DNA of 64,000 nucleotides, taken from Acidimicrobiia bacterium (GTDB lineage: Bacteria > Actinomycetota > Acidimicrobiia > IMCC26256 > JAENVU01). Positions 2,366 through 51,991 of this stretch are shown one piece after another. The notes under the pieces were generated by a model that was not told the DNA's origin, did no database searches, and saw only the letters and a program-made list of their open reading frames with translations. Position 1 is the first letter of the stretch; the number at the start of each line of letters is the position of its first letter. The stretch lies in contig JBBSBV010000004.1 in assembly GCA_038250905.1 (NCBI GenBank), positions 66,588 to 130,587 of the forward strand. The letters are read 5' to 3'. Position numbers and translations under genes: made by a program.

Positions 2366-3526
2366 TCAATACGACTTCGGGAGTCCGAGCGACTGCTGGG
2401 CCACGAAGTTGAGCACCATCTCCCGGCTGACCGGCGCGATCCGGAGCAGCCGGACCATGCCCCACAGGTCGGCGAGGCCGTACTCACTCGCCAGGCCGTT
2501 GCCGCCGTGGGTCTGGATCGCGGCGTCGAGCGCGTGGAGCCCGGCCTCGGCGGCCGCGTACTTGGCCATGTTCGCGGCCTCACCGGCGGCGACCCGATCC
2601 GACGAGTGGTCGTGCATCCAGGCGGCCTTGGCCATCATGAGTCGCGCCAGTTCGAGTTCGACCTTGGCCATGGCGAGCGGGTGCGCGATGCCCTGATGGC
2701 GGCCGATCGGCGTGCCCCAGACCTCACGCTCGTTCGCGTAGGTGGCGGCCTTGTCCAACGCGTAGCGGCCGATGCCGGTGCAGATCGCGGCGCTCATGAT
2801 GCGCTCGGGGTTGAGGCCCACGAACACCTGGCGGAGCCCTTCGCCCTCGTCGCCGAGGAGTCGGTCGGCCGGGACCTCGACGTCGTCGAAGAACAGCGTG
2901 TACTGCTTCTCGGGCGCGCTGATCTCCATCGGGATCACGGTTCGGTCCAGCCCGGGCGCATCGGTGTCGACGACGAAGAGCGAGAGTCGAGCGCGGCCGG
3001 TGTCGGGATGGGTACCGGTGCGGGTGACGACGACCATCGTGTCGGCCTCGTCCACGCCCGAGATGTAGGTCTTGGAACCGTTGAGCCGGTAGACGTCGCC
3101 GTCACGGGTGGCGGTGGTTGCGATGTTGTGGCTGTTCGACCCGGCGTCGGGCTCGGTGATCGCGAAGACCATCTTGGTGCCGGTCGCCATGCCCCGCAGC
3201 CAGCGGTCCTTCTGCGCGTCGGTCCCGAAGTGCTTGATCAGCTCGCCGCAGATGGCGGGGGACACGAGGATCAACAGCAGTGGTGTGCCCAGCGCGGCGA
3301 GTTCCTCGCACACGATGACGAGTTCCGACATCCCGCCGCCACCACCGCCGTACTCCTCGGGCAGGTGGACCCCGAGGAAGCCGAGTTCGCCGATCGCATC
3401 CCAGAGCTTGTCGGTGCGGCCACCGGTGCGGGCCTGGGTCGCGAAGTATTCGTGGCCGAACTGCGATCCGACATCGCGGACGGCGTCGCGCAGCATCTGG
3501 TGTTCGGACGGTTCGGCGAAGTCCAT
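2366..3526 (-). CDS. Acyl-CoA dehydrogenase.
   Basis: Full-length ACAD fold signature: GGGGGMSELVIVCEEL near the N-terminus and the C-terminal catalytic region (AKYAAAEA...THGGNG). ATG start. Confidence 0.9.
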   Translation of the reverse strand: MDFAEPSEHQMLRDAVRDVGSQFGHEYFATQARTGGRTDKLWDAIGELGFLGVHLPEEYGGGGGGMSELVIVCEELAALGTPLLLILVSPAICGELIKHFGTDAQKDRWLRGMATGTKMVFAITEPDAGSNSHNIATTATRDGDVYRLNGSKTYISGVDEADTMVVVTRTGTHPDTGRARLSLFVVDTDAPGLDRTVIPMEISAPEKQYTLFFDDVEVPADRLLGDEGEGLRQVFVGLNPERIMSAAICTGIGRYALDKAATYANEREVWGTPIGRHQGIAHPLAMAKVELELARLMMAKAAWMHDHSSDRVAAGEAANMAKYAAAEAGLHALDAAIQTHGGNGLASEYGLADLWGMVRLLRIAPVSREMVLNFVAQQSLGLPKSY

Positions 3527-10783: not shown

Positions 10784-10880
10784 CCGCCGACCCTCCGAGG
10801 TTCGTTTCGGTCGGAGTGCGTGCGAACGAGCAATCAGGGCGGAGCGAGCCTCGCGTCAGGCGTGACCGCCAGGAGTGCGT
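10784..10880. repeat. GAGCG-rich REP-like element, copy C; contains an internal direct repeat GGAGTGCGTGCGAACGAGC x2. Convergent gap between DUF2277 and MMPL.
   Basis: Shares GGAGCGAGCCTC(A/G)CG and GCG(T/C)G(C/A)GAACGAGC words with the copies at 27938 and 30031. Confidence 0.45.
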
Positions 10881-13039
10881 GCGAACGAGCCATCGAGCGC
10901 CGCGAGTTCGGCGTCGAGGTCGGGCTGACCCTCGATGTTCATGCGGGGCAGGATGCGGTCGAGCCACGCGGGGAGCCACCAGTTGCGGTCGCCGAGGAGT
11001 TCCATCGTCGCCGGGACGAGGATGAGCCGGACGATGGTGGCGTCGACGAACACCGCGACCGACATGCCGAGGCCGAAGACCTTCAGTGACCGGTCGGGTC
11101 CGAGCACGAACGCACCGAACACGCAGACCATGATCGCAGCCGCCGCGGTGATCACGCGTGCCGTCGCCGCGAGCCCGCTGGCGACCGCCTCCGCGTTGTC
11201 GCCGGTGCGGTCGTAATCCTCCTTGATGCGCGAGAGCAGGAATACCTCGTAGTCCATCGAGAGACCGAACACGACCGCGAAGAGCATGAGCGGGGCCCAC
11301 GACTCGATCGGGCCCTCCTTCCCGACGCCGATCAGGCTCGCGCCCCAGCCCCACTGGAAGACCGCGACCATCACCCCGTACGCGGCTCCCACCGACAGCA
11401 GGTTCATGATCACCGCCTTCAGCGGGACGAGCAGGCTCCGGAACACGATCATGAGCAGGACGAAGGAGAGCAGCAGCACGAACCCGACGACGACGGGGAG
11501 CATCCGCGCGGTGTAAGCCGCGAAGTCGTCGGCGGCGGCCGGGAACCCACCGACCGCGACCCGCGCGGTGGTGCCCGCGGTGGCCTCCGGGACGATGTGG
11601 TCACGCAGGCGGTTCACGAGGTCGTCGGTGGCGGCGTCCTGGGGTGACGTGGTGGGGAACACCTGCAGAATGGCCGCGGTGCCGGCCGGGTTCGGCCGGG
11701 GCGGCGTGGCGAACGCGACACCGCGCGTCTGGTTGAGGGTGGCCGACAGCCGATCCAGTACCGCGACGTCGCGGCCCCCTTCCGGTGTCTCGGCCGCGAG
11801 GAGGAGGGGTCCGTTGAAGCCGGGACCGAAGCCCTTCGCGAGCAGGTCGTACGCGCGTCGGGTGGTGCTCGAGGTGGGTGAGTTCCCCGCATCGCCGAAC
11901 CCGAGCCGCAGCGACCCGATCGGCAGCGCGATCACGATCAGCACCAGCAATGCGCCGATGAACGCCGGCCACGGCCGGCGCTGCACGAACTTGGCCCAGC
12001 GGCTCCAGAACGCGGGCCGGTCGGTCTCCCGGCTCCGGTGGGGGAGTCCGAAGCGGTCGATGTTCTTGCCCACGAACCCGAGGAGTGCCGGGAGGAGCGT
12101 GACCGAGCCGAGCATGGTGAACACCACGCCGATCGTCATGCCGACCGCGACCCCACGGAACGTCTCGGTGTTGAGGATGAGCAACCCGAGGAGGGAGATG
12201 ACGACGGTCGAGCCCGCGAACAGCACGGCCCGGCCCGCGGTGTCGAGCGCGACGACCACCGACGTCTCGGGACCATGACCCTTGGCCAGCGTCTCGCGGT
12301 AGCGCGTGACGATGAACAGCGCGTAGTCGATGCCGACGCCGATCGAGACCATCAAGGTGGCCTGGGTCGTGAAGTTCGGCATGTTCATGAAGTTGGCGAC
12401 GAGCGCGACGAGCGCGGTGCCACACCCGATGCCGAACAGTGCCGTCGCGATCGGCAGGCCCATCGCGAGGAGCGAGCCGAACGCGATGAGGAGGATGAGC
12501 ATGGCGAGGAAGAGCCCGACGGCCTCACTGCCGAACTGCTGGTCGTTGAAGATCTCGTTGCCGAGTTCGATCTGCAGTCCGTCGCGTTGCGCACCGTCCC
12601 GGAGTCCCTTGATCTTGGTGGCGGCGTCCTCGTACTGCTTGGACGACCGGTCGCGGAAGTTCAGCTCGGCGTACGCGATCTTCCCGTCGGGCGAGATCTG
12701 GCGCTCGTTACCTTGTTGGTAGGGACTGACCACCTGCGTGCCGCCGACCTGCTGCTCGATGTCGGCGAACAACTGCTTCATCGCGGTCTCGACCGGCGCG
12801 GTGCGCACACCCCGCGGGTCGGTGAACGCGATCTGCGCCGACCGTCCGGCGCGCTCGACGAAGCCCCGGTTCTTCAAGGTGTCGAACGCGCGCTGGCTCT
12901 CGGATCCGGGCAGTCCCTGTTGGACCTGGAACACGCCGCCGGCCGAACTCGACGCGATCGAGAGACCCACGAGGACGAGGATCCAGGCCGCGAGCACAGA
13001 GCGGCGGCGGCGGAAACAGGCGCGAGCGAGGGACTGCAT
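10856..13039 (-). CDS. MMPL family RND-type membrane transporter.
   Basis: Twelve TM helices with two large extracytoplasmic loops and duplicated MMPL blocks, 727 aa. Confidence 0.9.
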   Translation of the reverse strand: MQSLARACFRRRRSVLAAWILVLVGLSIASSSAGGVFQVQQGLPGSESQRAFDTLKNRGFVERAGRSAQIAFTDPRGVRTAPVETAMKQLFADIEQQVGGTQVVSPYQQGNERQISPDGKIAYAELNFRDRSSKQYEDAATKIKGLRDGAQRDGLQIELGNEIFNDQQFGSEAVGLFLAMLILLIAFGSLLAMGLPIATALFGIGCGTALVALVANFMNMPNFTTQATLMVSIGVGIDYALFIVTRYRETLAKGHGPETSVVVALDTAGRAVLFAGSTVVISLLGLLILNTETFRGVAVGMTIGVVFTMLGSVTLLPALLGFVGKNIDRFGLPHRSRETDRPAFWSRWAKFVQRRPWPAFIGALLVLIVIALPIGSLRLGFGDAGNSPTSSTTRRAYDLLAKGFGPGFNGPLLLAAETPEGGRDVAVLDRLSATLNQTRGVAFATPPRPNPAGTAAILQVFPTTSPQDAATDDLVNRLRDHIVPEATAGTTARVAVGGFPAAADDFAAYTARMLPVVVGFVLLLSFVLLMIVFRSLLVPLKAVIMNLLSVGAAYGVMVAVFQWGWGASLIGVGKEGPIESWAPLMLFAVVFGLSMDYEVFLLSRIKEDYDRTGDNAEAVASGLAATARVITAAAAIMVCVFGAFVLGPDRSLKVFGLGMSVAVFVDATIVRLILVPATMELLGDRNWWLPAWLDRILPRMNIEGQPDLDAELAALDGSFARTPGGHA

Positions 13040-20973: not shown

Positions 20974-21088
20974 CGGAGTCCCCAAACATGGGGATATTGC
21001 CCGCAGTGGGTTGTACGGCCCAGGACAACACAAACAGTGCAAAGTTAGTATTGCTCCTTCTTCGGGCTATCTATTTGGGAGGCGGACC

Positions 21089-24000: not shown

Positions 24001-26350
24001 GAACGCGCAGGGCACCGCGACGACGACCCAAGCGGGCCTGATCAACGTCGCCGTGAACCCGCCGCTCCTCAACGCCAAGTTCACGAGTACCGCAACCAGC
24101 GGCGCATCGCCGCTGCCGGTCCAGTTCACCGACGCGAGTGTCGGTGGGGTCACCGGTTGGGCGTGGGACTTCGGCGACGGAACGACGTCGACCGACCAGA
24201 ACCCGCTGCACGTCTACACCGCCAACGGCAAATACACGGTGAAGCTCACCGTGACCAGCCCCAGTGGCACGAACACCCGCATCCGTACCGACGATGTGAC
24301 GGTATCGACCCAGCCGACCACGGTCACCCCCGTGGCCGACAGCTACGTGCGGTCGAACGCAGCAACCTCCAACTTCGGCACTGCGACGACGATCGAGGGC
24401 TCCAGCACCGGGAACGGCCGTAGAGCCGTCAACTTCCAGCCGTACCTGCGGTTCTCGGTCGGCGCGCTGCCCGCGACGCCGACCAGCGCCAAGCTGCGGC
24501 TCTTCGTCACCGATGCGAGTGCGACGAGCGGGAACCTGTTCCGCACGTCGACCACGTGGACCGAGACCGGTCTGACGTGGAACAACAAGCCGGCGACGAC
24601 CGGAGCGTCGATCGGTGCCAGTCGCGCCGCAACGCTCGGGCAGTGGGTCGAGTTCGACGTGTCGTCGACGGTGACCGGCGCCGGTCAGTACGGATTCACG
24701 CTCACCAACCTGGCTGCCGACGCCGTCGCCTACTCGAGTCGAGAGGGAACCAACCCGCCGGAACTGGTGCTGTCCTACGGATCGGCGCCGACCGGCGCGT
24801 TGCCGATGCCGGCTTCACCCGGCCTCGCGCTGAGCCGTTCGTTCACGACCGTTCCGTTCTCCGGTACCAGTCCGGCAGTCCGCGCCTTCGACCTCGAGGG
24901 TTCGGCCTACGTCGCCAAGGACGACGCCCTCTGGCTGTCCGACGACAACGGTGACCGGGTGTTCGAGGTGGACGCCACCACGAGCACGCTGCGCCGTGCA
25001 CTCCAGCGGTCGGAGTTCTCCAACGCGCTGCCGCCCGGCGGGGTCGGGAACCCTGCGGGGCCGTCACGCTCGGACGACTTCGAGTCGGTTGCCTACGACG
25101 CCACCAACGACACCCTGTACCAGTTCTCGGGCAACTGCTGCTCGAGCACCCCGGGGACCACCCAGCCGCCGTACGACCCGACGATCTACCGCCTGAAGCG
25201 TGACGCGGCAGGACGGTTCCAGGTCGAGTCGTACCAGGCCCTGCCTGAAGGGACCGACCCGACCGGCTCCGGTTGGCGTCCCGGCGTGGGCCTCTTCTTC
25301 GCCCACGGCGGCATCATCACCAGCTACAACTACGACACCAACACCCTCGGCACGCCGGTCACGGTCGCCGGAACGGTCCCGGGTGGCATCACAGGTATGA
25401 CGTACTCGCCCGACGGCAAGTACATCATCGGCGTCACCACGACCCAGCGCCTGATCCTCGTGGATGCGGCGACGTTCACGATGGTGCCCGGGTGGAACAT
25501 CGACCTCCGCCCGTTCGGGATCCTTGATTCCCGTGCGGTCGAGTACATCGACGGTCAGCTCTTCGTCTCGGACGGTTACGACTTCCGGGCGGCCGGCGAT
25601 CCGCTCATGTACGCGGTCTTCGTCTTCGACATCGTCAACGGTCCGCCGCAGGCGACGTTCACCGCAACGCCGGCGTCGGGTCCGGCGCCGCTCGCGGTGC
25701 AGTTCGCCGACACCACGTTCGGCCCGGTCACCAGTCGGGTCTGGAACTTCGGTGACGGCAGCCCGACGTCGACGGTCGCCAACCCGTCGCACACGTACGC
25801 CGCCCTCGGCCAGTACACGGCCTCGCTGACGGTCACGAACGCGAACGGCAGCAACACCGCGACCCAGCTCGTCAAGGTGGTCACTGCGCCGGTGACGGTG
25901 ACCGCGGTCGCCGACACCTACGCCCGTTCGAACCAGCCGAACAACAACTTCGGGAGCGCACCGACGATCCAGGGCTGGAGTTCGTTCGGGACCGTGTACC
26001 AACCGTTCGTCCGGTTCTCGGTCGGCTCGTTGCCAGCGACGCCGGTATCGGCGAAGCTGCGGCTCTTCGCCACCGACGCGGGCGCCACGACCGGCGGTGT
26101 GTACGCCACCGCCAACGCGACGTGGTCGGAGTCGACCCTGACGTGGAACAACCGGCCGGCCACGAGCGGTGCCCAGATCGCCCCCTCCGGGAGTGCACCG
26201 CTCAACGCGTGGGTCGAGTTCGACGTCTCACCGGTGGTCACCGGTCCGGGTCAGTACAGCTTCACGCTGACCGGCGCGGGGGCCGACCTCGTCCAGTTCT
26301 CGAGTCGCCAGGGTGCCAACCCGCCGCAACTCGTCATCAACTTCGGCTGA
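21089..26350 (+). CDS. Giant secreted modular protein (about 1750 aa): three tandem modules of a propeller-like domain, PKD domains (5 total) and a DNRLRE-type putative carbohydrate-binding domain.
   Basis: GTG start with a GGGAGG RBS, then a signal peptide (VVSRSSRVLALVVSIALAASTLLA). Five WxFGDG...HTY PKD repeats. Three YVRS...KLRLF(V/A)TDA...TWxExxxTWNNRPA blocks typical of the DNRLRE domain. Three N-terminal domains with SRNCCTATGLDP and FQVESYQ(S/A)L motifs. Confidence 0.8.
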   Translation: MVSRSSRVLALVVSIALAASTLLAIVVAGAAPNAGIPALSLNRAYTTAPFAGTATTANSQEGSAYVPADNALWLVDTTHAYEVDASTDALRRTVPTADFTNALPVGGVGALAGTTRSDSFAAVSYDPTTDVLYVFSRNCCTATGLDPTAFRMTRDAGGHFQVESYQSLAAGTDPKGAGYRAGVGNYIGKGKVITPYNYDTNTLGAPITISGIDAAIGGMTFSPDGSELYVVTFVAAVDPTPASVKLYKVDTATWKPVPNWSLDLAPFGVLDPRAVELVGDQIYISDGGTRAAGDPLRRAVFVFDVLDLSVQPTASFTATPVSGSAPLPVQFTDTSQGGPTSWAWDFGDGATSTLTNPAHTYANPGTYTVKVTVANTKGNDTSTQTDLVTVADQAPIAGFTAANTTGQNPLSVDFTDTSTNHPTSWAWDFGDGVTSPAQNPSHTYASAGNFAVSLTVTNTGGTNTRVRSDLVHVSNAPVTVTAAADTYVRSDASNSNFGTQTTIQGRRQGNTTYQPYVRFTVPALPATPSSTKLRLFVTDASTATGTLFATANATWSETTTNWNNRPATTGAQLGASKAATLGQWVEFDVSSLVTGAGSYGFTLTNGVNDTVAFSSREGANPPQLVFSFPSNSSTSTLPNPPHVGLRLNHQFSTSPFPGTATASGGQGGSAYVAADNALWLVDGTKVYETDATTNALRRVVPTADFTNALPVGGAGAPAGTSRSDSLAALAYDPTGDVMYAFSRNCCTATGLDPSVFRLVRDGSGKFQVESYQSLPAGTDPVAAGVRPGVGLFFGKGQTILPYDYANNTIGTGIVIPGVDTAISGMAFTPDGKDLLVTSHLNVLYRVSTATWTVVPGWSFDLTPYGFVDPRGVALVGDQIVVSDGGLRPVGDPLRYAVFVFDLVDGTGAPVASFTASPVAGVAPLLTTFIDRSSGVPTSWVWNFGDGSTSTEARPTHTYSFAGLYDVTLTVTNAQGTATTTQAGLINVAVNPPLLNAKFTSTATSGASPLPVQFTDASVGGVTGWAWDFGDGTTSTDQNPLHVYTANGKYTVKLTVTSPSGTNTRIRTDDVTVSTQPTTVTPVADSYVRSNAATSNFGTATTIEGSSTGNGRRAVNFQPYLRFSVGALPATPTSAKLRLFVTDASATSGNLFRTSTTWTETGLTWNNKPATTGASIGASRAATLGQWVEFDVSSTVTGAGQYGFTLTNLAADAVAYSSREGTNPPELVLSYGSAPTGALPMPASPGLALSRSFTTVPFSGTSPAVRAFDLEGSAYVAKDDALWLSDDNGDRVFEVDATTSTLRRALQRSEFSNALPPGGVGNPAGPSRSDDFESVAYDATNDTLYQFSGNCCSSTPGTTQPPYDPTIYRLKRDAAGRFQVESYQALPEGTDPTGSGWRPGVGLFFAHGGIITSYNYDTNTLGTPVTVAGTVPGGITGMTYSPDGKYIIGVTTTQRLILVDAATFTMVPGWNIDLRPFGILDSRAVEYIDGQLFVSDGYDFRAAGDPLMYAVFVFDIVNGPPQATFTATPASGPAPLAVQFADTTFGPVTSRVWNFGDGSPTSTVANPSHTYAALGQYTASLTVTNANGSNTATQLVKVVTAPVTVTAVADTYARSNQPNNNFGSAPTIQGWSSFGTVYQPFVRFSVGSLPATPVSAKLRLFATDAGATTGGVYATANATWSESTLTWNNRPATSGAQIAPSGSAPLNAWVEFDVSPVVTGPGQYSFTLTGAGADLVQFSSRQGANPPQLVINFG

Positions 26351-26431: not shown

Positions 26432-27010
26432 ATGGCGAGTCCAACGTTCCCGATCACCGGCGACGCCGAGGCCGATCAGCTGCTCGTCGACGAGCCGCTC
26501 GCGCTGGTACTCGGAATGCTGCTCGACCAGCAGGTGCCGATGGAGTGGGCGTTCAAGGGCCCCGCCACGCTGAAGCGGCGGCTCGGGGCGCTCGACGCCG
26601 CGGCGATGGCCGAGATGACCCCGGACGCGATCGACGAGGTCTTCCGCGAGAAGCCGGCGGTCCACCGCTTCCCGTCGGCGATGGCCAAGCGTGCCCACGC
26701 ACTGTGTCAGCACCTGGTGGACGAGTACGACGGCGACGCGGCGAACATCTGGCGCGGGGTGACCGATCCCTCCGAGCTCTTCGACCGCATCCGGGCCCTC
26801 CCCGGCTACGGCGACGAGAAGGCCAAGATCTTCCTCGCGATCCTCGGGAAGCGACTCGGTGTGGCACCGGTCGGGTGGGAGCAGTACGCCGGACCCTTCG
26901 GTGACCCCACCCCGCGATCGGTGGCCGATATCGACTCCCGCGAGGCCTTCGCCCGGGTCCGGGCGTGGAAGAAGCAACAGAAGGCCCTGGGCAAGAAGAA
27001 GTCCGAATAG
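26432..27010 (+). CDS. HhH-GPD family base-excision DNA repair protein.
   Basis: Helix-hairpin-helix with a Gly/Pro-rich loop (LPGYGDEKAKIFL) and a conserved catalytic Asp region, 192 aa. Confidence 0.65.
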   Translation: MASPTFPITGDAEADQLLVDEPLALVLGMLLDQQVPMEWAFKGPATLKRRLGALDAAAMAEMTPDAIDEVFREKPAVHRFPSAMAKRAHALCQHLVDEYDGDAANIWRGVTDPSELFDRIRALPGYGDEKAKIFLAILGKRLGVAPVGWEQYAGPFGDPTPRSVADIDSREAFARVRAWKKQQKALGKKKSE

Positions 27011-27013
27011 CCG

Positions 27014-27033
27014 ACTGCACACAGCGTGCAACT
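27014..27033. promoter_or_regulatory. TGCAC-ACAGC-GTGCAA palindrome about 45 nt upstream of the lipoprotein gene at 27074 (site 3 of the TTGCAC-N5-GTGCAA motif).
   Basis: Same half-sites and 5-nt spacer as sites 1 and 2. Confidence 0.4.
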
Positions 27034-27073
27034 TTCGGTAGGGTGACGGGACTTGCCGAGTTGGGGGTTCCCT

Positions 27074-27937
27074 GTGCGTGTGTCTCGTTCGTTGTCGTCC
27101 GCAGTCGTCGGACTGGCGGTCGTCGTGGGCCTTGCCGCCTGCGGCAGCAGCAGTTCCAAGGGTGCGGCATCGACCAGCCCCTCCACGTCCGGCGGCATGT
27201 CCGCGCAGGAGATGCTGTGTATGTCCCAGCACTACCGCCAGGACAACCCGAGCAAGTGCAAGACCAGCGCGGCGGACACCGGGCCGGCCTACACGCTCGC
27301 CAACCCGCTGAAGACCGAGCCCGACGGCACCGTCGACCCGACGTCGGTGAACCTCTCCGGAGTCAAGGGCGTGACGCCGGAGCAGCAGAAGCTCGCGACC
27401 AACCTGCTCGTCTCCACCATCAAGACGCTCCCGAAGTGGGACGACATCAACCAGGCGAAGGCCGACGGCTTCCAGTCGATCGGTGACGGCCTCACCGGTG
27501 AGGAGCACCTCCTGCACTGGGACTGGATCAACGACAACACGATCTTCGATCCGAACCACCCGGAGTCGCTCGTCTACAAGGTCGACCGCGCCACCGGGAC
27601 CAAGACGCTCGAAGCCGCGATGTACATCCTCCCGAAGCAGTACACGTTCGACAACCCGCCGCCGATCAACAGCCCACTCGTGCAGTTCCACTACCACGAC
27701 AACCTGTGCTTCACGGCGGCGACGGCCACCGACGGCCCGATGGTGCGTGGGCTCACGGATGCGCAAGGCAACTGCCCGCCCGGGCTCACGAAGTTCGACC
27801 CGAACATCCAGGTGCACGTGTGGATCCGGCCGAACGACTGCGGTCCGTTCGCGGCGCTTCTCGGTGTGGGTGCCGGGCAGATCAAGGACGGCGCGACGCG
27901 CTCCTGCGTCCACAGCCACACCCGCCTCGGGTTGTAA
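27074..27937 (+). CDS. Hypothetical lipoprotein (secreted, Cys-rich).
   Basis: GTG start with a GGGGG RBS and a lipobox (LAAC). Mature protein carries several Cys pairs; no recognisable family. Confidence 0.55.
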   Translation: MRVSRSLSSAVVGLAVVVGLAACGSSSSKGAASTSPSTSGGMSAQEMLCMSQHYRQDNPSKCKTSAADTGPAYTLANPLKTEPDGTVDPTSVNLSGVKGVTPEQQKLATNLLVSTIKTLPKWDDINQAKADGFQSIGDGLTGEEHLLHWDWINDNTIFDPNHPESLVYKVDRATGTKTLEAAMYILPKQYTFDNPPPINSPLVQFHYHDNLCFTAATATDGPMVRGLTDAQGNCPPGLTKFDPNIQVHVWIRPNDCGPFAALLGVGAGQIKDGATRSCVHSHTRLGL

Positions 27938-28036
27938 CCGCGTCGGCCTGCTCCCGAGCGGAGCCTGCGAAGCGAGCAGTCCGGGAGCGAGCCTCACGGA
28001 GCGCATGATGCTCAGGAGCGCGAGCGGACGGACAAA
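27938..28036. repeat. GAGCG-rich REP-like element, copy A; convergent gap between the lipoprotein gene and the SDR gene.
   Basis: About 85% identical over roughly 90 nt to copy B (CTGCTCCCGAGCGGAGCCTGCG.AGCGAGC....AGCGAGCCTCACGGA..GCATGA....AGGAGCGCGAGCG.ACG). Confidence 0.55.
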
Positions 28037-28810
28037 TTACGGCGTGGTGAGGCCGCCGTCGATGACGAGGCACTGGCCGGTCATGAAGCTGGCCGCGTCG
28101 CTCGCGAGGAACAGGGCGCCGTTCGCGATCTCCTCGGGCTGGGCCATGCGCTTGATCAGGCCGGCGTTGGCCATCGCGAACTGAGCCGCTTCGTCGTTGT
28201 TGCGGACCATGTCGGTGTCGGTGGTCCCGGGGGCGAGTGCGTTGGCGCGGATGCCGTGCGGCGCGAACTCGGCGGCCATGGCCCGGGTCAGCTGCAGGAC
28301 CGCAGCCTTCGCGGAGCAGTACATCGACAGGTACGTTCCGTGGGTGAACGCGCCCGCGCTGATGACATTGACGATGCTCGCGTGATCGCTGGCGACGAGA
28401 TGGGGCAGCGCGTGCTGGACGAGGAACAAGGGACCGCGGAGGTTGGTGCCGTAGGACGATTCCCACGCTTCGGGTGTGATCGAACCGATCGGCAGGCCGA
28501 GCGCGTTGGCGGCGTTGTTGACCACGATGTCGATGCCGCCGAGCCGATCGACCGTCGTCGCCACCAGCGCGGCGAGTTCGTCGATGCGCCCGGCGTGGGC
28601 CGGCACCGAGATCGCGCGGCCACCGGCTTCGGTGATCGCCCTCGCCGCGGTGTCGCATGCCTCGGGCTTGCGGCTCGCGATCACCACCTGCGCGCCGCAC
28701 GCGGCGAAGGTCTCGGCGACGGCGCGACCGATGCCGCGGCTCCCACCGGTGACGATCGCGACGCGGTCGGTGAGGTCGAACTGGTGGTCGATGTCGGCTC
28801 GGGTTCGCAT
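28037..28810 (-). CDS. SDR family oxidoreductase.
   Basis: TGGSRGIG motif and a YCSAK catalytic motif. Start trimmed to the ATG (MRTRADIDH). Confidence 0.85.
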   Translation of the reverse strand: MRTRADIDHQFDLTDRVAIVTGGSRGIGRAVAETFAACGAQVVIASRKPEACDTAARAITEAGGRAISVPAHAGRIDELAALVATTVDRLGGIDIVVNNAANALGLPIGSITPEAWESSYGTNLRGPLFLVQHALPHLVASDHASIVNVISAGAFTHGTYLSMYCSAKAAVLQLTRAMAAEFAPHGIRANALAPGTTDTDMVRNNDEAAQFAMANAGLIKRMAQPEEIANGALFLASDAASFMTGQCLVIDGGLTTP

Positions 28811-28839
28811 GGCGGCAGTCTCTCCCACGGTGCCCGGAG

Positions 28840-30030
28840 GTGCGCGTGATCGAGTTGTCCGCGGCGCAGGCGCGCCGGATGGCACTCGCCGCGCAGGGCT
28901 TCGCCGAGAAGCGCCCCGCGGGCCGCGTCGACCGCCGTCACGTGCGCAAGGTCTTCGATCGCATCGGGGTCATCCAGATCGATTCGGTGAACGTGTTGGT
29001 GCGGTCCCAGGAGCTCCCACTGTTCGCAAGGCTGGGCCCTCACCCGCGCGACGTGTTGCCGAAGATGGTCGCGGACGGCGAACTGTTCGAGTACTGGGCG
29101 CACGAGGCGTCACTGCTGCCGATGGAGATGCATCCGCTGTTCCGGTGGAAGATGACGTCACGCGAGGGGATGTGGAACGGCCTTGCCCGCCTTGCCGAGG
29201 AGCAGCCGGAGCTGCTTGCCACGCTGCTCGCCGAGGTCGAGGCCCGGGGTCCGTTGGCGGCGAGCGACATCGAGGGCCGGGCCGGCAAGGCGGGGCCGTG
29301 GTGGGGTTGGGACCACACGAAGCAGGCGCTCGAGGTGTTGTTCTTCATGGGCCAGGTCTCGGCCCGGCGCCGGTCGAACTTCGAACGCGAGTACGACCTC
29401 GTCGAGCGCATGGTCGGAGCCGACCTCCTCGGCCCGGTACCACCGACCGAGGCCGACGCGTGGAAGGAGCTGCTCGTCCGTGCCGCGCAGGCCCACGGAG
29501 TCGGCACGGCGAAGGATCTCGCCGACTACTACCGGCTCAACACCGTCCGCGCCCGCCCGCTGCTCGAGGAACTGGTGGCCGAAGGTCGGCTGGTACCCGC
29601 GACCGTCGAGGGCTGGAAGGGCCCGGTGTACGCGCACCCGCACGCGACGGTGCCGCGCTGGATCCGCGCCCGCGCGCTGTTGTCGCCGTTCGATTCGTTG
29701 ATCTGGGAACGGGCGCGTACCGAGCGACTCTTCGGGTTCCGCTACCGGCTCGAGATCTACGTGCCGGCGGAGAAGCGGGTCCACGGCTACTACGTGTTGC
29801 CGTTCCTGCTCGGCGACCGGCTGGTGGCACGCGTCGATCTGAAGGCCGATCGGACCGGGCGCGTGCTCCGGGTGCGGGGTGCCTTCGGGGAGGACCCGAT
29901 CCCATCTCCCGAGGTGGCCGCCGAACTCGCCGCCGAGTTGCAACTGCTGGCCGCCTGGCTGGGCCTCGACGCCGTCTCCGTCACCCCCCACGGCGACCTC
30001 GCCCCCGCCCTTGCCGAAGCACTGGGCTGA
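28840..30030 (+). CDS. Winged-helix DNA-binding protein, DUF1006 / YcaQ-like (second paralogue).
   Basis: Collinear with YcaQ-family proteins (FEYWAHEASLLP, WYLLPFL... blocks), 396 aa. Confidence 0.7.
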   Translation: MRVIELSAAQARRMALAAQGFAEKRPAGRVDRRHVRKVFDRIGVIQIDSVNVLVRSQELPLFARLGPHPRDVLPKMVADGELFEYWAHEASLLPMEMHPLFRWKMTSREGMWNGLARLAEEQPELLATLLAEVEARGPLAASDIEGRAGKAGPWWGWDHTKQALEVLFFMGQVSARRRSNFEREYDLVERMVGADLLGPVPPTEADAWKELLVRAAQAHGVGTAKDLADYYRLNTVRARPLLEELVAEGRLVPATVEGWKGPVYAHPHATVPRWIRARALLSPFDSLIWERARTERLFGFRYRLEIYVPAEKRVHGYYVLPFLLGDRLVARVDLKADRTGRVLRVRGAFGEDPIPSPEVAAELAAELQLLAAWLGLDAVSVTPHGDLAPALAEALG

Positions 30031-30153
30031 GCAGGCACGCAACCTGCTCCCCGAGCGGAGCCTGCGGAGCGAGCCGCGAGGCAGCGAGCCTCACGGAAGG
30101 CATGACGCGTAGGAGCGCGAGCGAACGAGCCGACAGGGCGTACGGACCGGAAT
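30031..30153. repeat. GAGCG-rich REP-like element, copy B; convergent gap between the YcaQ-like-2 gene and VIT1.
   Basis: See copy A; the alignment was made by eye. Confidence 0.55.
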
Positions 30154-30903
30154 TCAGACGACGGTCCCGAGCAGCTTTCCGATCACGGCGGCGATCAGCA
30201 TGGCGACGCCACCGATGAGCGTGACGCGCAGGGCCGCGCGTACGACGGGTGCGGCACCGAGGCGAGCCCCGACCGCGCCGATCACCGCGAGGAGCACGAG
30301 CGCCGCGACCGCGATGACGGCGATGCGTGCCGAGGCCGGTACGGCCGCGGCAATCAACACCGACGGAGTGGCGCCCAGCAGGAACCCGGCCGACGAGACG
30401 CCGGCAGCCTGAATCGGACGCGCGGTGCCTTCGATGTCGAGGCCCAACTCGTCGCGCACGTGGGTTCCGAGCGCATCGGTCTTCGTCAGCTGGATGGCGA
30501 CCTGACGGGCGATCGGGCGGTCGAGTCCACGTTGCTCGTAGATCTGGGTGAGCTCCTCGAGTTCCGTCTCCGGGAACTCCTGGAGCTCGACGGTTTCCCG
30601 GGCGATGTCGGCGTGCTCGGTGTCGCGCTGCGAGGAGACCGACGTGTACTCACCGGCGGCCATCGACAGCGCGCCGGCCACGACCGACGCGACCCCCGCG
30701 ATGATGAGTGCATTCCGATCGCTGCTCGCGGCGGCCACTCCGATCAGCAGGCTCGACGTCGAACCGACGCCGTCCTGCGCGCCGAGCACCGCGGCTCGGA
30801 GCCAACCGATTCGATCGGACCGATGCGATTCGGCGTGAAGTCTTCTGGGCACGGCACCAGCATGCCCGCGAAACGCGCCGGATGCGGGAACGAACGAGCC
30901 CAT
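30154..30903 (-). CDS. VIT1/CCC1 family (vacuolar iron transporter-like) membrane protein.
   Basis: VLGAQDGVGSTSSLLIGVA N-terminal motif and a C-terminal 3-TM cluster. Confidence 0.7.
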   Translation of the reverse strand: MGSFVPASGAFRGHAGAVPRRLHAESHRSDRIGWLRAAVLGAQDGVGSTSSLLIGVAAASSDRNALIIAGVASVVAGALSMAAGEYTSVSSQRDTEHADIARETVELQEFPETELEELTQIYEQRGLDRPIARQVAIQLTKTDALGTHVRDELGLDIEGTARPIQAAGVSSAGFLLGATPSVLIAAAVPASARIAVIAVAALVLLAVIGAVGARLGAAPVVRAALRVTLIGGVAMLIAAVIGKLLGTVV

Positions 30904-30959
30904 CGATCGGTTTCGGGTGATACGAAGGGTCGGTACAACTCTCGAACGGGGTAGGGGCC

Positions 30960-33041
30960 ATGGTGTACGTCATCGTGTTGATCGTGGTGTTCTTCATCGC
31001 GGTCTTGTTGTTCAAGTCGGTACACCTGATCGGCCCGGCGCAGGTCGGCCTGGTCAACAAGCGCCTCGCGATCCGCAAGCTGCCCGAGGACAACCCGATT
31101 GCGTTCCGGGGCGAGGCCGGCTACCAGGCCGAGCTGCTCACGCCGGGTCTGCGCATCAAGTTGTGGCCGATCTTCGCGGTGCAGAAGTACCCGTGGGTCC
31201 AGGTCCCGGCGGGTGAGATCGGTGTGGTCATCGCCCAGGTGGGCCAACCGTTGCCGATCGGCGCGAAGAGCGGCGTGTACCGCAGCGAGTTCGCCAACTT
31301 CTCGAACCTGGCGACGTTCGTGAACGGTGGTGGCCAGAAGGGCGTGCAGCGCCCGGTGCTCCCGCCGGGAACCTTGGTGCCGATCCACCCCGTGGCCTTC
31401 CTCGTGCTGACCCCGGGTCAGGTCTACGGAGTACCGGTCTCGCCCGACATCGCGGCCCAGACGCGCGGCAGCGCGGGGATGCTGTCGCCGGCGTCGTTCG
31501 GCCTCGCCGCCGAGGCGTTGCGCGTCGTGGTGATCTCGCCGGAAGGTCCGGTCGACATGATCGGCATCGTCACCGTGCTCGAGGGTGAACCGCTGCCGAG
31601 TGGCGACATCGCGAGCCGGCTCGCCGGGTACGAGGACGTCACCTCGATGGAACAGGAAGCCGTCGAGCGGGGCGCGTCGACGAGCGAAACCGACGCCCGC
31701 ATCATCGAGGTCCTGCTCGGCAACAAGAACGTCCAACACAACAACTACCAGGACATCCAGGCGTTCCTGGAGGCCGGCGGCAAGATCGGCCTGCAGCACG
31801 ACCCGCTGCTGTACGGCGCGTACCTGTTGAATCCGTTCCTGGTGCGCGTCGAGATGGTCCCGATGCTCGTGGTGAACCAGGGCGAGGTCGCCGTCATCAA
31901 GGCGTTCGTCGGTCTGCCCACGCTCGACACCAGCGGCAGCGAGTTCAAGTTCGGCTCGATCGTCTCGCCCGGACACCGGGGGATCTGGCGCGAGCCGCTG
32001 CGGACGGGCAAGTACCCGATCAACCCGCGGTGTTACGCGCCCGAGATCGTGCCGACGTCGATCCTCACGTTGAACTGGTCGAAGGAGATCAGCGCATCCC
32101 ACAACCTCGACGCCCATCTCGCGCCGATCGAGGGCAAGAGCCGGGAAGGGTTCGTCTTCTCGATCGAGCTCCAGGTGCAGATCCACGTGCCCGACACGCG
32201 CGCCCCGAAGGTGATCTCGATGGTCGGCACGATGCTCAACCTCGTCAACGAGGTCCTCCAATCCGCGGTGGGGAACCACTTCCGGAACACGCTCCAGGAC
32301 CAGGCCGCGGTCACGTTCATCGAGACCCGGATGCAGGTGCAGCAGGCCGCCCTGGTGCACGTCACCGAATACCTGCAGCTGTACGAGGTGGAGACCAAGG
32401 GCGTCTACATCCAGAACGTGCACTTCCCGGAGGAGCTGGTCAAGGTCCTGACCGAGCGCGAGATCGCCAACCAGGAGAAGGCGACCTTCGAGGAGATGCA
32501 GCGCGCGCAGACCACCCGCATCGAGATGGAGAAGGCGAAGGGCACCGCGAACATGCAGGCCGAACTCGCCAACGCGCAGGTGAGTGTCGAGATCCAACGC
32601 AACCGGGCCGACGCCCGCCAGGCCGAAGCCACTGGTGAGGCGGCCTACGTCGAGCTCACCGGGCGGGCCGAGGCGACCAAGATCGAGGCGATCGGCCTGG
32701 CGGAAGCCAAGGCCACCGAGGCCCTCGGCGTGGCCCGCGCCACCGGATTCGAGGCCCAGAAGGAGGCCCTCGGCGGCACCGCGACCGCGCTGGTCGCGGT
32801 GGCGAACGCGGTCGCCGACGGGCACATCACGGTGGTGCCCGAGGTGCTGGTGACCGGCGGCGGTGGTGGCAGTCTCGACGGACTCGCGGCGTCGCTCATC
32901 CGGTATCTGGGCCAGAACCGCGCGGCGCCGACACCTGCGGTGGCGATCGATCCGGTGGAGTCGTTGCGCGAGGAGCTAGTGGGCGGCGCGGGCGACGGCG
33001 AGGATCGTCCGATGGGCGACGGTGGTGGCGTTCGGACCTAA
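30960..33041 (+). CDS. Flotillin / SPFH (band-7) domain membrane protein.
   Basis: N-terminal TM helix, an SPFH domain, and a long Ala/Glu-rich coiled-coil flotillin tail (EAQKEALGG...). Confidence 0.85.
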   Translation: MVYVIVLIVVFFIAVLLFKSVHLIGPAQVGLVNKRLAIRKLPEDNPIAFRGEAGYQAELLTPGLRIKLWPIFAVQKYPWVQVPAGEIGVVIAQVGQPLPIGAKSGVYRSEFANFSNLATFVNGGGQKGVQRPVLPPGTLVPIHPVAFLVLTPGQVYGVPVSPDIAAQTRGSAGMLSPASFGLAAEALRVVVISPEGPVDMIGIVTVLEGEPLPSGDIASRLAGYEDVTSMEQEAVERGASTSETDARIIEVLLGNKNVQHNNYQDIQAFLEAGGKIGLQHDPLLYGAYLLNPFLVRVEMVPMLVVNQGEVAVIKAFVGLPTLDTSGSEFKFGSIVSPGHRGIWREPLRTGKYPINPRCYAPEIVPTSILTLNWSKEISASHNLDAHLAPIEGKSREGFVFSIELQVQIHVPDTRAPKVISMVGTMLNLVNEVLQSAVGNHFRNTLQDQAAVTFIETRMQVQQAALVHVTEYLQLYEVETKGVYIQNVHFPEELVKVLTEREIANQEKATFEEMQRAQTTRIEMEKAKGTANMQAELANAQVSVEIQRNRADARQAEATGEAAYVELTGRAEATKIEAIGLAEAKATEALGVARATGFEAQKEALGGTATALVAVANAVADGHITVVPEVLVTGGGGGSLDGLAASLIRYLGQNRAAPTPAVAIDPVESLREELVGGAGDGEDRPMGDGGGVRT

Positions 33042-40995: not shown

Positions 40996-41018
40996 AGATT
41001 GCACAGGTCGTGCAATCT
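40996..41018. promoter_or_regulatory. Perfect 9-5-9 palindrome AGATTGCAC-AGGTC-GTGCAATCT about 20 nt upstream of the secreted-protein gene start; candidate operator (site 1).
   Basis: Read from the sequence; shares the 15-mer TTGCACAGGTCGTGC with the site at 51254. Confidence 0.5.
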
Positions 41019-41036
41019 TTCTTGGGGGGAAACACC

Positions 41037-41984
41037 ATGGCGTCTCGGCCTACTCGTCAACGCTGGATGCGTGCGCTCGCGGGCGTCGCCATCGCCTCGG
41101 TCGTGGCGCTCGCCGCCGTGCCGGCCTTCGCGCACGACAGCAGTTCGAAGAGCAAGAAGTCGTCGAAGTGCCAGGAGATGTCCGGCATGGACATGTGCGG
41201 CAACGGCGTGTACCACGGCAAGGCCTCGAACACCCTGAAGCCGGGCACGATGCACACGATCGACGGTGCGCTCACCGGCGACTCGCCGTGTGAGAAGTCG
41301 GGTCCGCCGGCGTCGGTGGGTCAGGTCAAGAAGGACGCGGAGGGTCACGACCACCGCGGCCCGCTCTACCAGTACCCGGTCTCCAAGGCCGACCGCGAGA
41401 CCTTGATCCAGCAGCAGACCCAGGCGCGGGCCGTGGCGGACAAGTACCCGACCGTCGCGTCGGCCGAGGCCGCGGGCTACCGCAAGTCGACGGTGTACGT
41501 GCCGTGTATCGGCGCCCACTACACGAACACCAGCCTGGTCGGGAAGTTCGACCCGTCGGCCCCGTCCGAGTTGCTGTTCGACGGTGACACGCCCGACGCC
41601 AAGATCGTGGGCCTGAGCTTCCTGCTCCTGCACCCGGGCGGCCCACCCGAGGGCTTCGCCGGACCGAACGACATGTGGCACCAGCACAACGCCAACGGCG
41701 GACTCTGCCTCAACGCGTCCGGCGTGGTCATCGGCGCGGAGTCGACCAGCACGAAGGACTGCACCGCTCGCGGTGGCAAGAAGGCCGCTCTGGCCGACAT
41801 CTGGATGGTGCACGACTGGGTCGTGCCGGGCTGGGAATGCAGCTGGGGCGTCTTCGCCGGCGAGTGCCCGGAACTCGGTGGTCGGATCGGCGGCACCGCG
41901 TTCGACAAGCCGGACCCGAAGGCGACCAAGCAGGCGCTCGCCGGCAAGGCCAAGAGCACCAAGTCCAAGGCCAAGTCGAGCTGA
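41037..41984 (+). CDS. Secreted hypothetical protein (His/Cys-containing, Lys-rich tail).
   Basis: GGGGGG RBS, ATG, and a signal peptide (MRALAGVAIASVVALAAVPAFA). No recognised family. Confidence 0.55.
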   Translation: MASRPTRQRWMRALAGVAIASVVALAAVPAFAHDSSSKSKKSSKCQEMSGMDMCGNGVYHGKASNTLKPGTMHTIDGALTGDSPCEKSGPPASVGQVKKDAEGHDHRGPLYQYPVSKADRETLIQQQTQARAVADKYPTVASAEAAGYRKSTVYVPCIGAHYTNTSLVGKFDPSAPSELLFDGDTPDAKIVGLSFLLLHPGGPPEGFAGPNDMWHQHNANGGLCLNASGVVIGAESTSTKDCTARGGKKAALADIWMVHDWVVPGWECSWGVFAGECPELGGRIGGTAFDKPDPKATKQALAGKAKSTKSKAKSS

Positions 41985-42053
41985 CGCACCGCCGGAGTTC
42001 CTCCGGCCCGCATTCGCGGAGGGCGCCTTCGCCGCGTCAGGATCGCGGTCGGG
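41985..42053. repeat. Degenerate relative of the REP-like family plus a terminator-like hairpin; convergent gap between the secreted-protein gene and the alpha/beta hydrolase.
   Basis: GCGGAGGGCGCCTTCGCCGCGTCAGG resembles copy C's GCGGAGCGAGCCTCGCGTCAGG. The hairpin GCCGGAG-TTC-CTCCGGC is at 41991-42007. Confidence 0.3.
41991..42007. terminator. Hairpin GCCGGAG-TTC-CTCCGGC between convergent genes; candidate bidirectional terminator.
   Basis: A 7-bp perfect stem 7 nt after the + strand stop and about 46 nt after the minus-strand stop. Confidence 0.3.
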
Positions 42054-42782
42054 TCAGGCCCACAACCGGACGAGGGCGGCGGCCGACTCGGTCGCGTGCT
42101 CACGCGGCCACCAGTGGCCGCAGCCGGGGTAGGTGATCAGGTCCGCGCCGAGCCGGGCGGCCATACGTTCGGCGATGGCGACGGGAACGTAGGGGTCGTC
42201 GCCACCGTGGAAGGCGAGCGTGCGCAGGGTCGGCATCGCATCGACGGCCGGCTGCCACTCGGCGCCGACGGTCACCGCCGATCGGTACAGGGCCAGGATG
42301 CAGTCGGTCATCCGTTCGTCGAGGTGCGCGGCCTGGTCGGCGGCGAGGTCCGGTGGCGCGCCGCCACCCACGAATCCGGCGATGCGATCCTCGACTGGCA
42401 GCGCGAGGAGTCCGGCCATCACCTGTTCGCCGACGGCGGGCGTCTGCCAGAGCTGCGCCATCGGGTGCCACTCGTAGGTCGCGTCGAGCGGACCACCCCC
42501 GCACGCGAGCGTCCGGACCAGGTCGGGGCGGGTGGACGCCACCCGCTGGGCGAGGATGGCACCCCAGTCGTGAGCGACGAGGTCGACCGGTCGGCCGAGC
42601 GCCTCGATCTCGGACCCGAGCCAGGCCGCGTACGCCTCCTTGGTGGCGTCCCAGCCGTCCGGCGTCGGCGTGGCGAATCCGGGAAGCCCGACCGCCACCA
42701 CGTCGGTCCGGCCGAGCGCGGCGATCAACGGATCCCACATCGTCGCGGTGTCGGGGACACCGTGGACGAAGACCGCCGGCAT
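42054..42782 (-). CDS. Alpha/beta hydrolase.
   Basis: HDWG nucleophile-elbow variant and a C-terminal His (GCGHWWP), 242 aa. Confidence 0.8.
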   Translation of the reverse strand: MPAVFVHGVPDTATMWDPLIAALGRTDVVAVGLPGFATPTPDGWDATKEAYAAWLGSEIEALGRPVDLVAHDWGAILAQRVASTRPDLVRTLACGGGPLDATYEWHPMAQLWQTPAVGEQVMAGLLALPVEDRIAGFVGGGAPPDLAADQAAHLDERMTDCILALYRSAVTVGAEWQPAVDAMPTLRTLAFHGGDDPYVPVAIAERMAARLGADLITYPGCGHWWPREHATESAAALVRLWA

Positions 42783-51250: not shown

Positions 51251-51275
51251 TTGTTGCACAGGTCGTGCTGATTGC
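51251..51275. promoter_or_regulatory. Second copy of the TTGCACAGGTCGTGC 15-mer, in the divergent promoter region between the SIMPL lipoprotein and the PH-domain membrane protein (site 2).
   Basis: Exact 15-nt match to site 1; a further TTGCA half-site lies 4 nt downstream. Confidence 0.45.
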
Positions 51276-51322
51276 AGGCCCGGGTTGTGCTGACGGGCCA
51301 TACCACCCACAATGGTTCCACG

Positions 51323-51859
51323 ATGCCTGAGCTGAGTGCCGATTCCACAGTCGCACCCGCTCCGGTTGTCGCCCCTGACAACCGGCCGGCGAGTGGCCCG
51401 ACGCTGACGCTCCGGCCGCGCCTGGTGTTCCGGTTGGCCGGACCCCTGTTGATCGTGCTCGGGGTGGCCGGTGTGGCCGCCGGATACCTCGCGGCCACCG
51501 CGATCGCGGTGATCGGCGTGTTCGGCCTGGTCGCCTGGCTCCAGCGAGTCTCGATCGACGAGCACCAGGTCGTCATCCGGGGTGTGCGCTCCTCGACCAC
51601 CCTGCCCATCGACGCGATCGACGAGGTCCGGCTCCGGCGGGTCCCGTTCGGCCCCAAGCACGGGCTGCGCAAGAGCTATCGGTTCGGCCCGTTCTCGTCG
51701 ACGCCCATCCGACTCCGGCTGATCCGCGCCGACGTCACCCTCGTGCAACTCACCGCCGTCTACTGGGAGGGCTGGGCCGGTCTGGTCCGCTACCTCCTCG
51801 CCGTTCCCGCGATCGATTCCGACAGCCGCACCCGCGGCCGCCTGGAGCGGTACGGCTGA
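51323..51859 (+). CDS. Membrane protein with two TM helices followed by a bacterial PH-like domain.
   Basis: Two adjacent TM helices then a beta-rich block (VVIRGVRSSTTLPIDAIDEVRLRR). Confidence 0.5.
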   Translation: MPELSADSTVAPAPVVAPDNRPASGPTLTLRPRLVFRLAGPLLIVLGVAGVAAGYLAATAIAVIGVFGLVAWLQRVSIDEHQVVIRGVRSSTTLPIDAIDEVRLRRVPFGPKHGLRKSYRFGPFSSTPIRLRLIRADVTLVQLTAVYWEGWAGLVRYLLAVPAIDSDSRTRGRLERYG

Positions 51860-51991
51860 CCTGTCGGGCCGTACGCTCACGCTCCTCCTCGTCATGCGTG
51901 ACGGGAGGTTCGTTCCCGGCCTGCTTGCCTCCGCAAGCTCCGGCTCGGGGGTCCCGAACGATGACGCTCGATTCTTTGCGTTCCTGACCGC

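Follow-up and report, generated by a model that had tools for sequence, protein, structure and literature searches.

A family of structured, hairpin-forming interspersed repeats in genomes of uncultured Acidimicrobiia

The 64,000-nt stretch of Acidimicrobiia DNA considered here (the window) has a base composition of 70% GC and carries, in its 64 kb, four GAGCG-rich blocks, three full (A, B and E) and one partial (C), which are copies of an undescribed interspersed repeat of about 95 nt found in a few uncultured Acidimicrobiia genomes. Copy A (27947..28038, + strand; nhmmer E 1.4e-17; 88.7 bits with covariance model R1) lies between the stop codon of a + strand gene (27053..27937) and that of a − strand SDR gene (28037..28885), and is composed of a leader, CCTGCTCC, a conserved block 1, a hairpin (27979..28033, + strand) and a short tail. 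Copy B (30049..30143, + strand; E 1.7e-17; 83.6 bits) separates the convergent AlkZ and VIT1 genes and consists of block 1, a hairpin at 30076-30130 and the tail CGACAGGG. Copy C (10813..10895, + strand; E 5e-8; 39.9 bits), in the gap between the DUF2277 and MmpL genes, is a partial mosaic without block 1, made up of a solo block 3 with its tail (10813-10839) and one hairpin module (5' arm 10837-10854, loop 10855-10871, 3' arm 10872-10890). Copy E (about 51862..51949, − strand; E 3e-14; 92.6 bits), with a hairpin at 51867-51921 and a GGCCG/CGGCC lower stem, is antisense to both of its neighbours; it stands 2-3 nt past the stop codon of a + strand gene (51272..51859) and some 80 nt upstream of a gene of the Rrf2 family (start ~52029; Pfam Rrf2 domain from residue 48).

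The profile hidden Markov model (HMM) used with nhmmer was built from copies A and B together with six copies from other genomes, and gives E-values of 1e-14 to 1e-21 for clear members. The covariance model gave 16 matches of 35-99 bits, located in the window, on contigs of the metagenome-assembled genomes (MAGs) JBBQXR01 and JBDUBS01 and in the L139-141 group (L-numbers, from L001 to L147, label loci or contigs in other genomes); true members score at least 35 bits and chance or background matches at most 30. Within the window nothing besides A, B, C and E was matched. The family is genuine, spans several genomes and is restricted to one lineage. The notion that the blocks are GC-rich intergenic sequence alike by chance or composition, or else extend the flanking genes at their C-termini in a conserved manner, draws on the high GC content of the genome and on the fact that a strict two-block pattern also matches coding sequences (6/14 of the matches in genomes, and 120/120 among the metagenome matches listed). 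We regard it as already refuted by the E-values, by the gap between members and chance matches in bit score and by the empty orthologous sites; homologues of the flanking genes end before the blocks, and a six-frame peptide query for open reading frames (ORFs) translated across the repeat found no protein at E<=10. The consensus is open in all three forward frames, and no ORF is conserved, stops being present in the frames of several copies. The GC content of the copies is 62-74%, against 70% in the host genome.

A sequence-only reading of the window had proposed a REP-like family of four copies, and its central homology claims hold: A and B are 85% identical over 78 ungapped nt (family D16 in our repeat comparison), and C shares two blocks with them (AGCGAGCCTC and GGAGTGCGTGCGAACGAGC) and has a 19-nt internal direct repeat (10813-10831 and 10872-10890; family D13), although the element reaches ~10895 rather than 10880 and overlaps the last 11 MmpL codons. 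The block-3 motif occurs five times against 0.66 expected. The list of members needs amending, as the full copy E had been missed and a supposed degenerate relative, "copy D" (41985..42053, assigned to neither strand), has no place in the family: it aligns poorly, is matched by neither the profile HMM nor the covariance model, and differs in the orthologous gap. What lies at 41985-42053, between convergent genes (41010..41984, + strand; 42054..42782, − strand), is an unrelated, lineage-specific spacer of three hairpins, closed by GCTGACGC/GCGTCAG and not conserved in the syntenic relative L143.

Ten full copies are readily alignable and share one anatomy. Block 1 (CCCGAGCCGGAGCCTGCGGAGGCGAGC), a conserved 5' block of 27 nt, is single-stranded and is followed by a 5' arm of 19 nt with AGCGAGCCTCAC at its end, a segment that varies between 15 and 27 nt and forms the apical loop, a 19-nt 3' arm, GGAGYGCGAGCGAACGAGC, and the tail AATCAGGG. 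On the purine-rich strand RNAalifold joins the arms into an imperfect hairpin of ~55 nt, in which the AGCGAGCCTC block pairs with the GGAGCGCGAGCGAACGAGC block, interrupted by G·A mismatches; from base to tip it comprises a 5-bp lower stem, a G-N-A/G-N-A internal loop, GC/GC, a tandem G·A/A·G step, a GCCUC/GGAG helix and the loop. The tandem step consists of a GCGAGC paired with a second GCGAGC; model duplexes such as r(GGCGAGCC)2 contain tandem G·A in this self-complementary context. Across the 11 Watson-Crick pairs and ten sequences, 97.3% of cells are Watson-Crick or wobble, compared with 88% in shuffles (0/500), and doubly substituted cells number 10 in the ten sequences versus 2.6 in shuffles (0/500). 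When the register is slid by 1-3 nt only 24-54% of cells pair, and the pairing and covariation result is unchanged on 16 sequences. The hairpin is conserved and strand-specific.

The lower stem exists in at least five versions, namely GCGAG/CGAGC, GTCCG/CGGAC (copy A, fully Watson-Crick), GGCCG/CGGCC (copy E), GGCAC/GTGCC and GACCC/GGGGC, so that the G·A/A·G of the commonest one (GCGAG/CGAGC) is swapped for C-G/C-G or C-G/A-T in others, while G·A and A·G are invariant in 14-16 of 16 sequences at their places in the 3x3 loop and the upper tandem step. In our view the strongest single piece of evidence that shape and not sequence is conserved comes from the divergent copy in L139, in which block 1, the GNA loops and a lower stem (GCCCG/CGGGC) are retained and the upper helix is a completely different, perfectly paired one (GGGCGCC/GGCGCCC). 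Copy A folds singly into the consensus structure (−26 kcal/mol, z −2.66), with the G-N-A/G-N-A loop, GC/GC, the tandem G·A and GCCUC(A)C/GGAG(C)GC stacked above its lower stem and a loop at 27998-28014; the single-sequence minimum free energy structure from RNAfold likewise equals the consensus hairpin in E (z −3.55), L004, L011 and L139, z-scores over these five ranging from −0.9 to −3.6. The folding and covariance check that the sequence-only reading had advised yielded a structure other than the stems it had named: GCTCC-cgagc-GGAGC can form in A and B and is kept in only about half of the members, and we rejected this 5' stem as the conserved structure. The opposite strand was likewise set aside as the folding strand, its RNAalifold fold being weaker and essentially devoid of covariation. 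For copies with a GCGAG lower stem (the B type; window 30076-30094, L002:288-306) a competing hairpin, GAGGC-AGCGA-GCCUC, is predicted, and on this folding model the two structures could amount to a two-state fold.

These data also bear on whether the unit is read as double-stranded DNA, that is, as an array of binding sites for a regulator or nucleoid-associated protein in which (G)CGAGC is recognised in the duplex and the hairpin is incidental. Each unit does contain four to five GCGAGC-like motifs, and in E. coli REP elements and BIMEs are bound by IHF, gyrase and Pol I (PMC2817692). Yet both the compensatory changes of the lower stem and the replaced upper helix of L139 preserve pairing at the expense of sequence, the varying apical length leaves the spacing of the motifs unfixed, and the copies are found mostly at gene 3' ends rather than at promoters, which makes such an array very improbable.

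Comparison with orthologous sites in relatives indicates how the copies came to be where they are. The clearest case is copy B, which is part of a 127-nt insert (30029..30155, + strand; aligned against empty sites in L138, L139 and L141) that also includes a perfect hairpin, GAGCAGG-cacgcaa-CCTGCTC, on its 5' side and an extra GCGTACGGACCGGAATTC on its 3' side. In L138, L139-141, L146 and L147 the site is empty and the convergent stop codons of AlkZ and VIT1 overlap by 4 nt (CTAG); the insert falls between the T and the A of this CTAG and provides both genes with new stops: AlkZ takes from it the GA of its TGA (30028-30030), VIT1 the TC of its TCA (30154-30156). At the junctions, GGCT-insert-AGACGAC, no bases are duplicated, as judged from this one clean site and relatives whose AlkZ proteins are 81-85% identical. 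The 127-nt insert is present only in the window among the relatives compared; elsewhere the junction holds spacers of 21-29 nt (L145, L143) or an unrelated 80-nt hairpin insert (L142). The AlkZ/VIT1 convergent junction is an evolutionary hot spot; its coordinates are L138:6094-6097, L139:3585-3588, L142:5066-5145, L143:4292-4320 and, in the window, 30031-30153.

At the site of copy C, L137, L015 and L016 lack the element: the DUF2277/MmpL gap measures 10 nt in L137 (88% identity) and 29 nt in L015, and is occupied by an unrelated 102 nt in L016. The end of the MmpL gene in the window (10856-10891, − strand) derives from the repeat, its final 11 codons being the reverse complement of block 3 and its stop (10856-10858, − strand) lying in the loop of copy C, and the resulting tail, DGSFARTPGGHA, replaces the conserved ...LT.ESSPT.. 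tail of the homologues. The site of copy A has the element on the + strand in the window and a divergent member on the opposite strand in L139-141; in L138 (4029-4092), L142 (3009-3059) and L143 (2234-2285) only short, terminator-like hairpin spacers are found. The 3' arm of these spacers, CCGGACGAGCAAT, resembles the 3' end of the element, GCGAACGAGCAATC, and they could be old remnants of it, or the similarity could be microhomology used at insertion.

One insertion lies inside a gene. In L015 (19730-19900; GCA_038223775.1, JBBRGT010000001.1) two divergent units in tandem make up an insertion of 162 nt that keeps the reading frame and adds 54 amino acids (HTTNTEPHRSGGEQ...RRNKES) to a helix-connecting region in the C-terminal domain of an acyl-CoA dehydrogenase; Pfam divides that domain into two stretches around it, and the orthologue in the window (2366..3526, − strand) is without the insertion and 85-98% identical on either side. 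Module number varies as well: hairpin or block-3 modules differ in number in C, L002, L010, L011 and L012, with no fixed pair of terminal modules, L012 having two tandem 65-nt hairpin units and L002 an array in which shuffled modules form a mosaic more than 350 nt long, cut off by the end of the contig. The family has thus gained copies repeatedly and in both orientations, at the ends of genes and on at least one occasion within one; the copies have been amplified locally into tandem and mosaic arrays, and their insertion can rewrite the stop codons and C-terminal tails of neighbouring genes.

As to the placement of the family, flanking genes were checked by GC content at third codon positions and by Pfam at 13 loci. 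Six gaps are convergent (A, B, C, L001a, L007 and L139) and L002 is probably a seventh, five are tandem (E, L001b, L004 and L012, antisense to the genes, and L011, sense), and one, L010, is divergent. With six or more convergent gaps among 12, the deviation from a 1:2:1 expectation has p ~0.05, and a preference for convergent gaps is weakly supported and not a rule: all four loci named by the sequence-only reading are convergent, as it had stated, while copy E lies between two + strand genes. No sigma-70-like promoter and no U-tract terminator was found at A or B (terminator scan of 27000-31000).

Given this placement, the repeat might be a functional cis-acting RNA module of the 3' untranslated region, in which a hairpin in the upstream mRNA shields the 3' end from exonucleases or aids termination where genes are tightly packed, and which spreads because it is useful. 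Most copies begin no more than ~20 nt from a stop codon, convergent gaps account for 6 or 7 of the 13 loci, the fold is specific to one strand and includes G·U and G·A pairs, as is typical of RNA, and the sequence is kept between genomes. We nevertheless consider this unlikely, since in four of the five copies in tandem gaps the purine-rich strand is antisense to both genes, L010 occupies a divergent promoter gap directly upstream of pfk, the overlapping stops at the ancestral site of copy B imply that no spacer was needed, and one tandem pair sits within coding sequence. The missing U-tract, the loop of 15-27 nt and the empty terminator scan at A and B also speak against it and against the earlier idea of a bidirectional terminator, and the element is not an intrinsic terminator.

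A family of small RNA (sRNA) genes, or of sRNAs processed from 3' untranslated regions, would account for an architecture in which the conserved 5' block stays unpaired and the hairpin after it covaries, much as in many trans-acting sRNAs; block 1, the best-conserved part even in divergent copies, would then be the seed and the hairpin a stabilising 3' structure. However, no promoter-like site is present in or before the element, the sequence upstream of block 1 is unconserved and there is no terminator tail. Partial copies without block 1 (C, L012) persist and duplicate, and orientation to the neighbouring genes is mixed. Rfam offers no relative, with no match at gathering thresholds in the window and none at E<=10 in 27900-30200. 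Independent sRNA genes, as the sequence-only reading had entertained, find no backing here, and we judge the sRNA explanation as a whole to be quite improbable.

The family extends beyond the window, with relatives in at least four other Acidimicrobiia assemblies; the nearest named homologues of the MmpL and AlkZ/YcaQ-like proteins of the window are also from Acidimicrobiia/Acidimicrobiales MAGs. A scan of 185,579 genomes, one per species and the source genome not among them, with the strict two-block pattern gave 14 matches, of which six were coincidences in coding sequence; true members came only from two Acidimicrobiia MAGs, JBBQXR01 (L001, L004, L007, L010) and JBDUBS01 (L002, L011, L012), and more divergent ones (L139-141, L015) lie on syntenic contigs of relatives. 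Viral contigs scanned with block 3 and block 1 gave no match, nor did a BLAST search of a plasmid collection with copy B, and in a metagenome scan for GCGAGCCTC-N(10-25)-AGGAGYGCGWGCG all 120 matches listed were chance or coding, none of them passing the HMM or the covariance model. If the loop is disregarded, identity reaches 96% between L002 and L010, which belong to different MAGs, and 86-87% between B and either of these, but only 74% between B and E, both in the window; E is closest to L001b, with which it has a G-C to A-T compensatory change in common. That subfamilies are common to different genomes argues for constraint on the sequence, for example through recognition by a partner, rather than for free decay. 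An alphaproteobacterial MAG (CAWFDN01; L005:3229-3308) carries a classic REP-like element, a perfect palindrome whose left arm, GAGGAGTGCGAGCGACGAAGCAATCC, matches block 3 at 21/26 positions; we rejected it as a relative and take it for probable convergence, the match having been selected by the pattern and the fold being a plain palindrome.

Among described repeats, the family resembles REP or BOX elements in lifestyle and matches none of the known families tested. With REP, BIME and REPIN-RAYT systems of Proteobacteria it has in common that the units are short, interspersed, mostly extragenic and concentrated at gene 3' ends, that the imperfect hairpin is made strand-asymmetric by mismatches and preceded by a conserved 5' flank, and that mosaic clusters and constraint across genomes go together with the lack of terminal inverted repeats (TIRs) and target-site duplications (TSDs) and with a plausible recognition as a single strand. 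To this extent the earlier REP/BIME reading was apt, but the defining features fail. A REP has GT[AG]G 0-2 nt 5' of the hairpin and a fully paired basal stem of 7-20 nt, topped by a 2-5-nt loop or else, beyond a bulge of 1-3 nt, by another stem (PMC6006769). Here no GTAG or GTGG tag exists, ...GGAGGCGAGC(A/C) preceding the foot of the hairpin in all aligned copies, and a 5-bp basal stem, 3x3 loop, tandem G·A and 15-27-nt apical loop make up the ~55-nt hairpin. The conserved 5' block is 27 nt long, the host belongs to the Actinomycetota, inverted doublets and alternating units of the BIME kind are absent (all multi-unit loci, C, L002, L012 and L015, are direct tandems), and no RAYT gene turned up beside any of the 13 loci. 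REP families often exceed 100 copies per genome and accompany a single-copy RAYT gene that has REPs of its own on either side; here the window has four copies in 64 kb. In REP surveys searched by text, PMC6006769 included, Actinobacteria go unmentioned.

The miniature inverted-repeat transposable elements suggested earlier, taken as defined in PMC3049150, do not fit, as TIRs, AT-richness and, at the one clean site, TSDs are lacking: the 5' end, CCCGAGCC, and the 3' end, AATCAGGG, are alike only in CCC/GGG, and RNAalifold gives no closing helix. BOX elements of Streptococcus pneumoniae (boxA-boxB(n)-boxC) possess TIRs and make TSDs, can change neighbouring coding sequences and form open frames upon insertion, and are predicted to form a stem-loop if transcribed (PMC3049150). 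Our family is similarly modular, in that a module may be absent or tandemly multiplied (C, L002, L012), but the repeated module is the hairpin itself, TIRs and TSDs are not seen, and host and base composition are unrelated. The in-frame insertion in L015 recalls the Rickettsia palindromic elements and the RU and ERIC elements of enterobacteria inside genes, from which the family differs in having a single intragenic case, 4/4 window copies being extragenic or clipping a C-terminus. The Rickettsia elements are presumably unrelated to it in sequence.

Within the same phylum, the mycobacterial interspersed repetitive units (MIRUs) are likewise GC-rich intergenic units of 50-100 nt able to form tandem arrays; they lie inside operons, co-oriented with the genes, and contain small ORFs that overlap the adjacent stop and start codons. 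Judged by these descriptions, our family departs from them in its mixed orientation, with 6-7 of 13 loci convergent and 4/5 copies in tandem gaps antisense, and in having no conserved ORF; MIRUs may also resemble it in being GAGCG/GAGGAG-rich. The ends of IS200/IS605 elements and their miniature derivatives (PATEs) combine, as here, a subterminal imperfect hairpin with adjacent conserved sequence on one strand and with the absence of TIRs and TSDs, whereas our units have one hairpin each instead of distinct left and right ends, and no conserved target tetranucleotide is definable. No tnpA or tnpB was found near the family copies, and inspection of the aligned ends revealed no integron attC core sites (RYYYAAC, GTTRRRY).

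Taken together, we favour, at a probability of roughly 60%, the explanation that these are non-coding, non-autonomous insertional repeats of ~95 nt in a subset of Acidimicrobiia that are recognised as a folded single strand. The cue for recognition would be the shape of the hairpin together with the conserved 5' block, and the recogniser a trans-acting enzyme that copies or moves the unit without duplicating the target, effects on transcripts, such as those of a 3' hairpin, being secondary. The 3' untranslated region, sRNA and duplex-binding explanations are disfavoured because of the antisense orientation in most tandem gaps, the lack of promoter or terminator features and the preservation of pairing over sequence. 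REP/RAYT and IS200/IS605 systems likewise combine a hairpin and a conserved 5' flank with the absence of TIRs and TSDs (PMC6006769), which suggests by analogy a partner acting like the HUH/Y1 enzymes of those systems or similar, which we put forward tentatively, at rather less than even odds.

Several observations weigh against the insertional explanation. The thermodynamic z-scores are modest (−0.9 to −3.6), the covariation is based on 10-16 related sequences, and with DNA parameters the topology is retained but the two strands fold about equally well, which leaves the strand assignment dependent on the conserved G·A pairs. The ends of the element are fuzzy, and the sites of A and C show replacement rather than clean insertion, a change that recombination could also cause. 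No transposase was found among the genes flanking the 13 loci, and the strict pattern gives only 3-4 loci in each of two fragmented MAGs out of 185,579 genomes, for which reason the family may be small.

A broader and rather unlikely idea is that the invariant G·A-studded hairpin and the conserved 27-nt 5' block together are what an as yet undescribed system of Acidimicrobiia, acting on single-stranded nucleic acid, recognises. The partner could be either a mobilising enzyme unrelated to RAYT and IS200, or an RNA-binding or processing factor that makes the copies a dispersed family of regulatory RNAs. Either way, the basal part (block 1, lower stem and GNA/GNA loop) would be the functional core and the apical part exchangeable cargo.

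Proteobacteria and Firmicutes have well-studied interspersed structured repeats, and our literature searches found none described for Acidimicrobiia or, more broadly, for Actinobacteria. The present family is a clear example of gene ends reshaped by the insertion of a repeat, through new stops and a rewritten C-terminal tail, and includes an in-frame insertion of 54 residues in an enzyme; the conservation of non-canonical G·A pairs amid covarying neighbours suggests that a single strand is recognised by its shape. Discovery of a partner enzyme would extend the host-element relationship of the REPIN/RAYT type to a new phylum. The covariance model may also serve to mask or annotate these elements in MAGs, whose assemblies they probably break, as one array running off a contig end illustrates.

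A replication-linked rule for the orientation of the copies was considered and rejected, as GC skew keeps its sign between the + strand copies and the − strand copy. A local negative excursion of the skew is caused by an 1800-aa ORF (20948-26350, + strand) with three internal tandem repeats of ~1.8 kb, three CBM96 and five PKD domains, which has a syntenic homologue of 1757 aa in L145.

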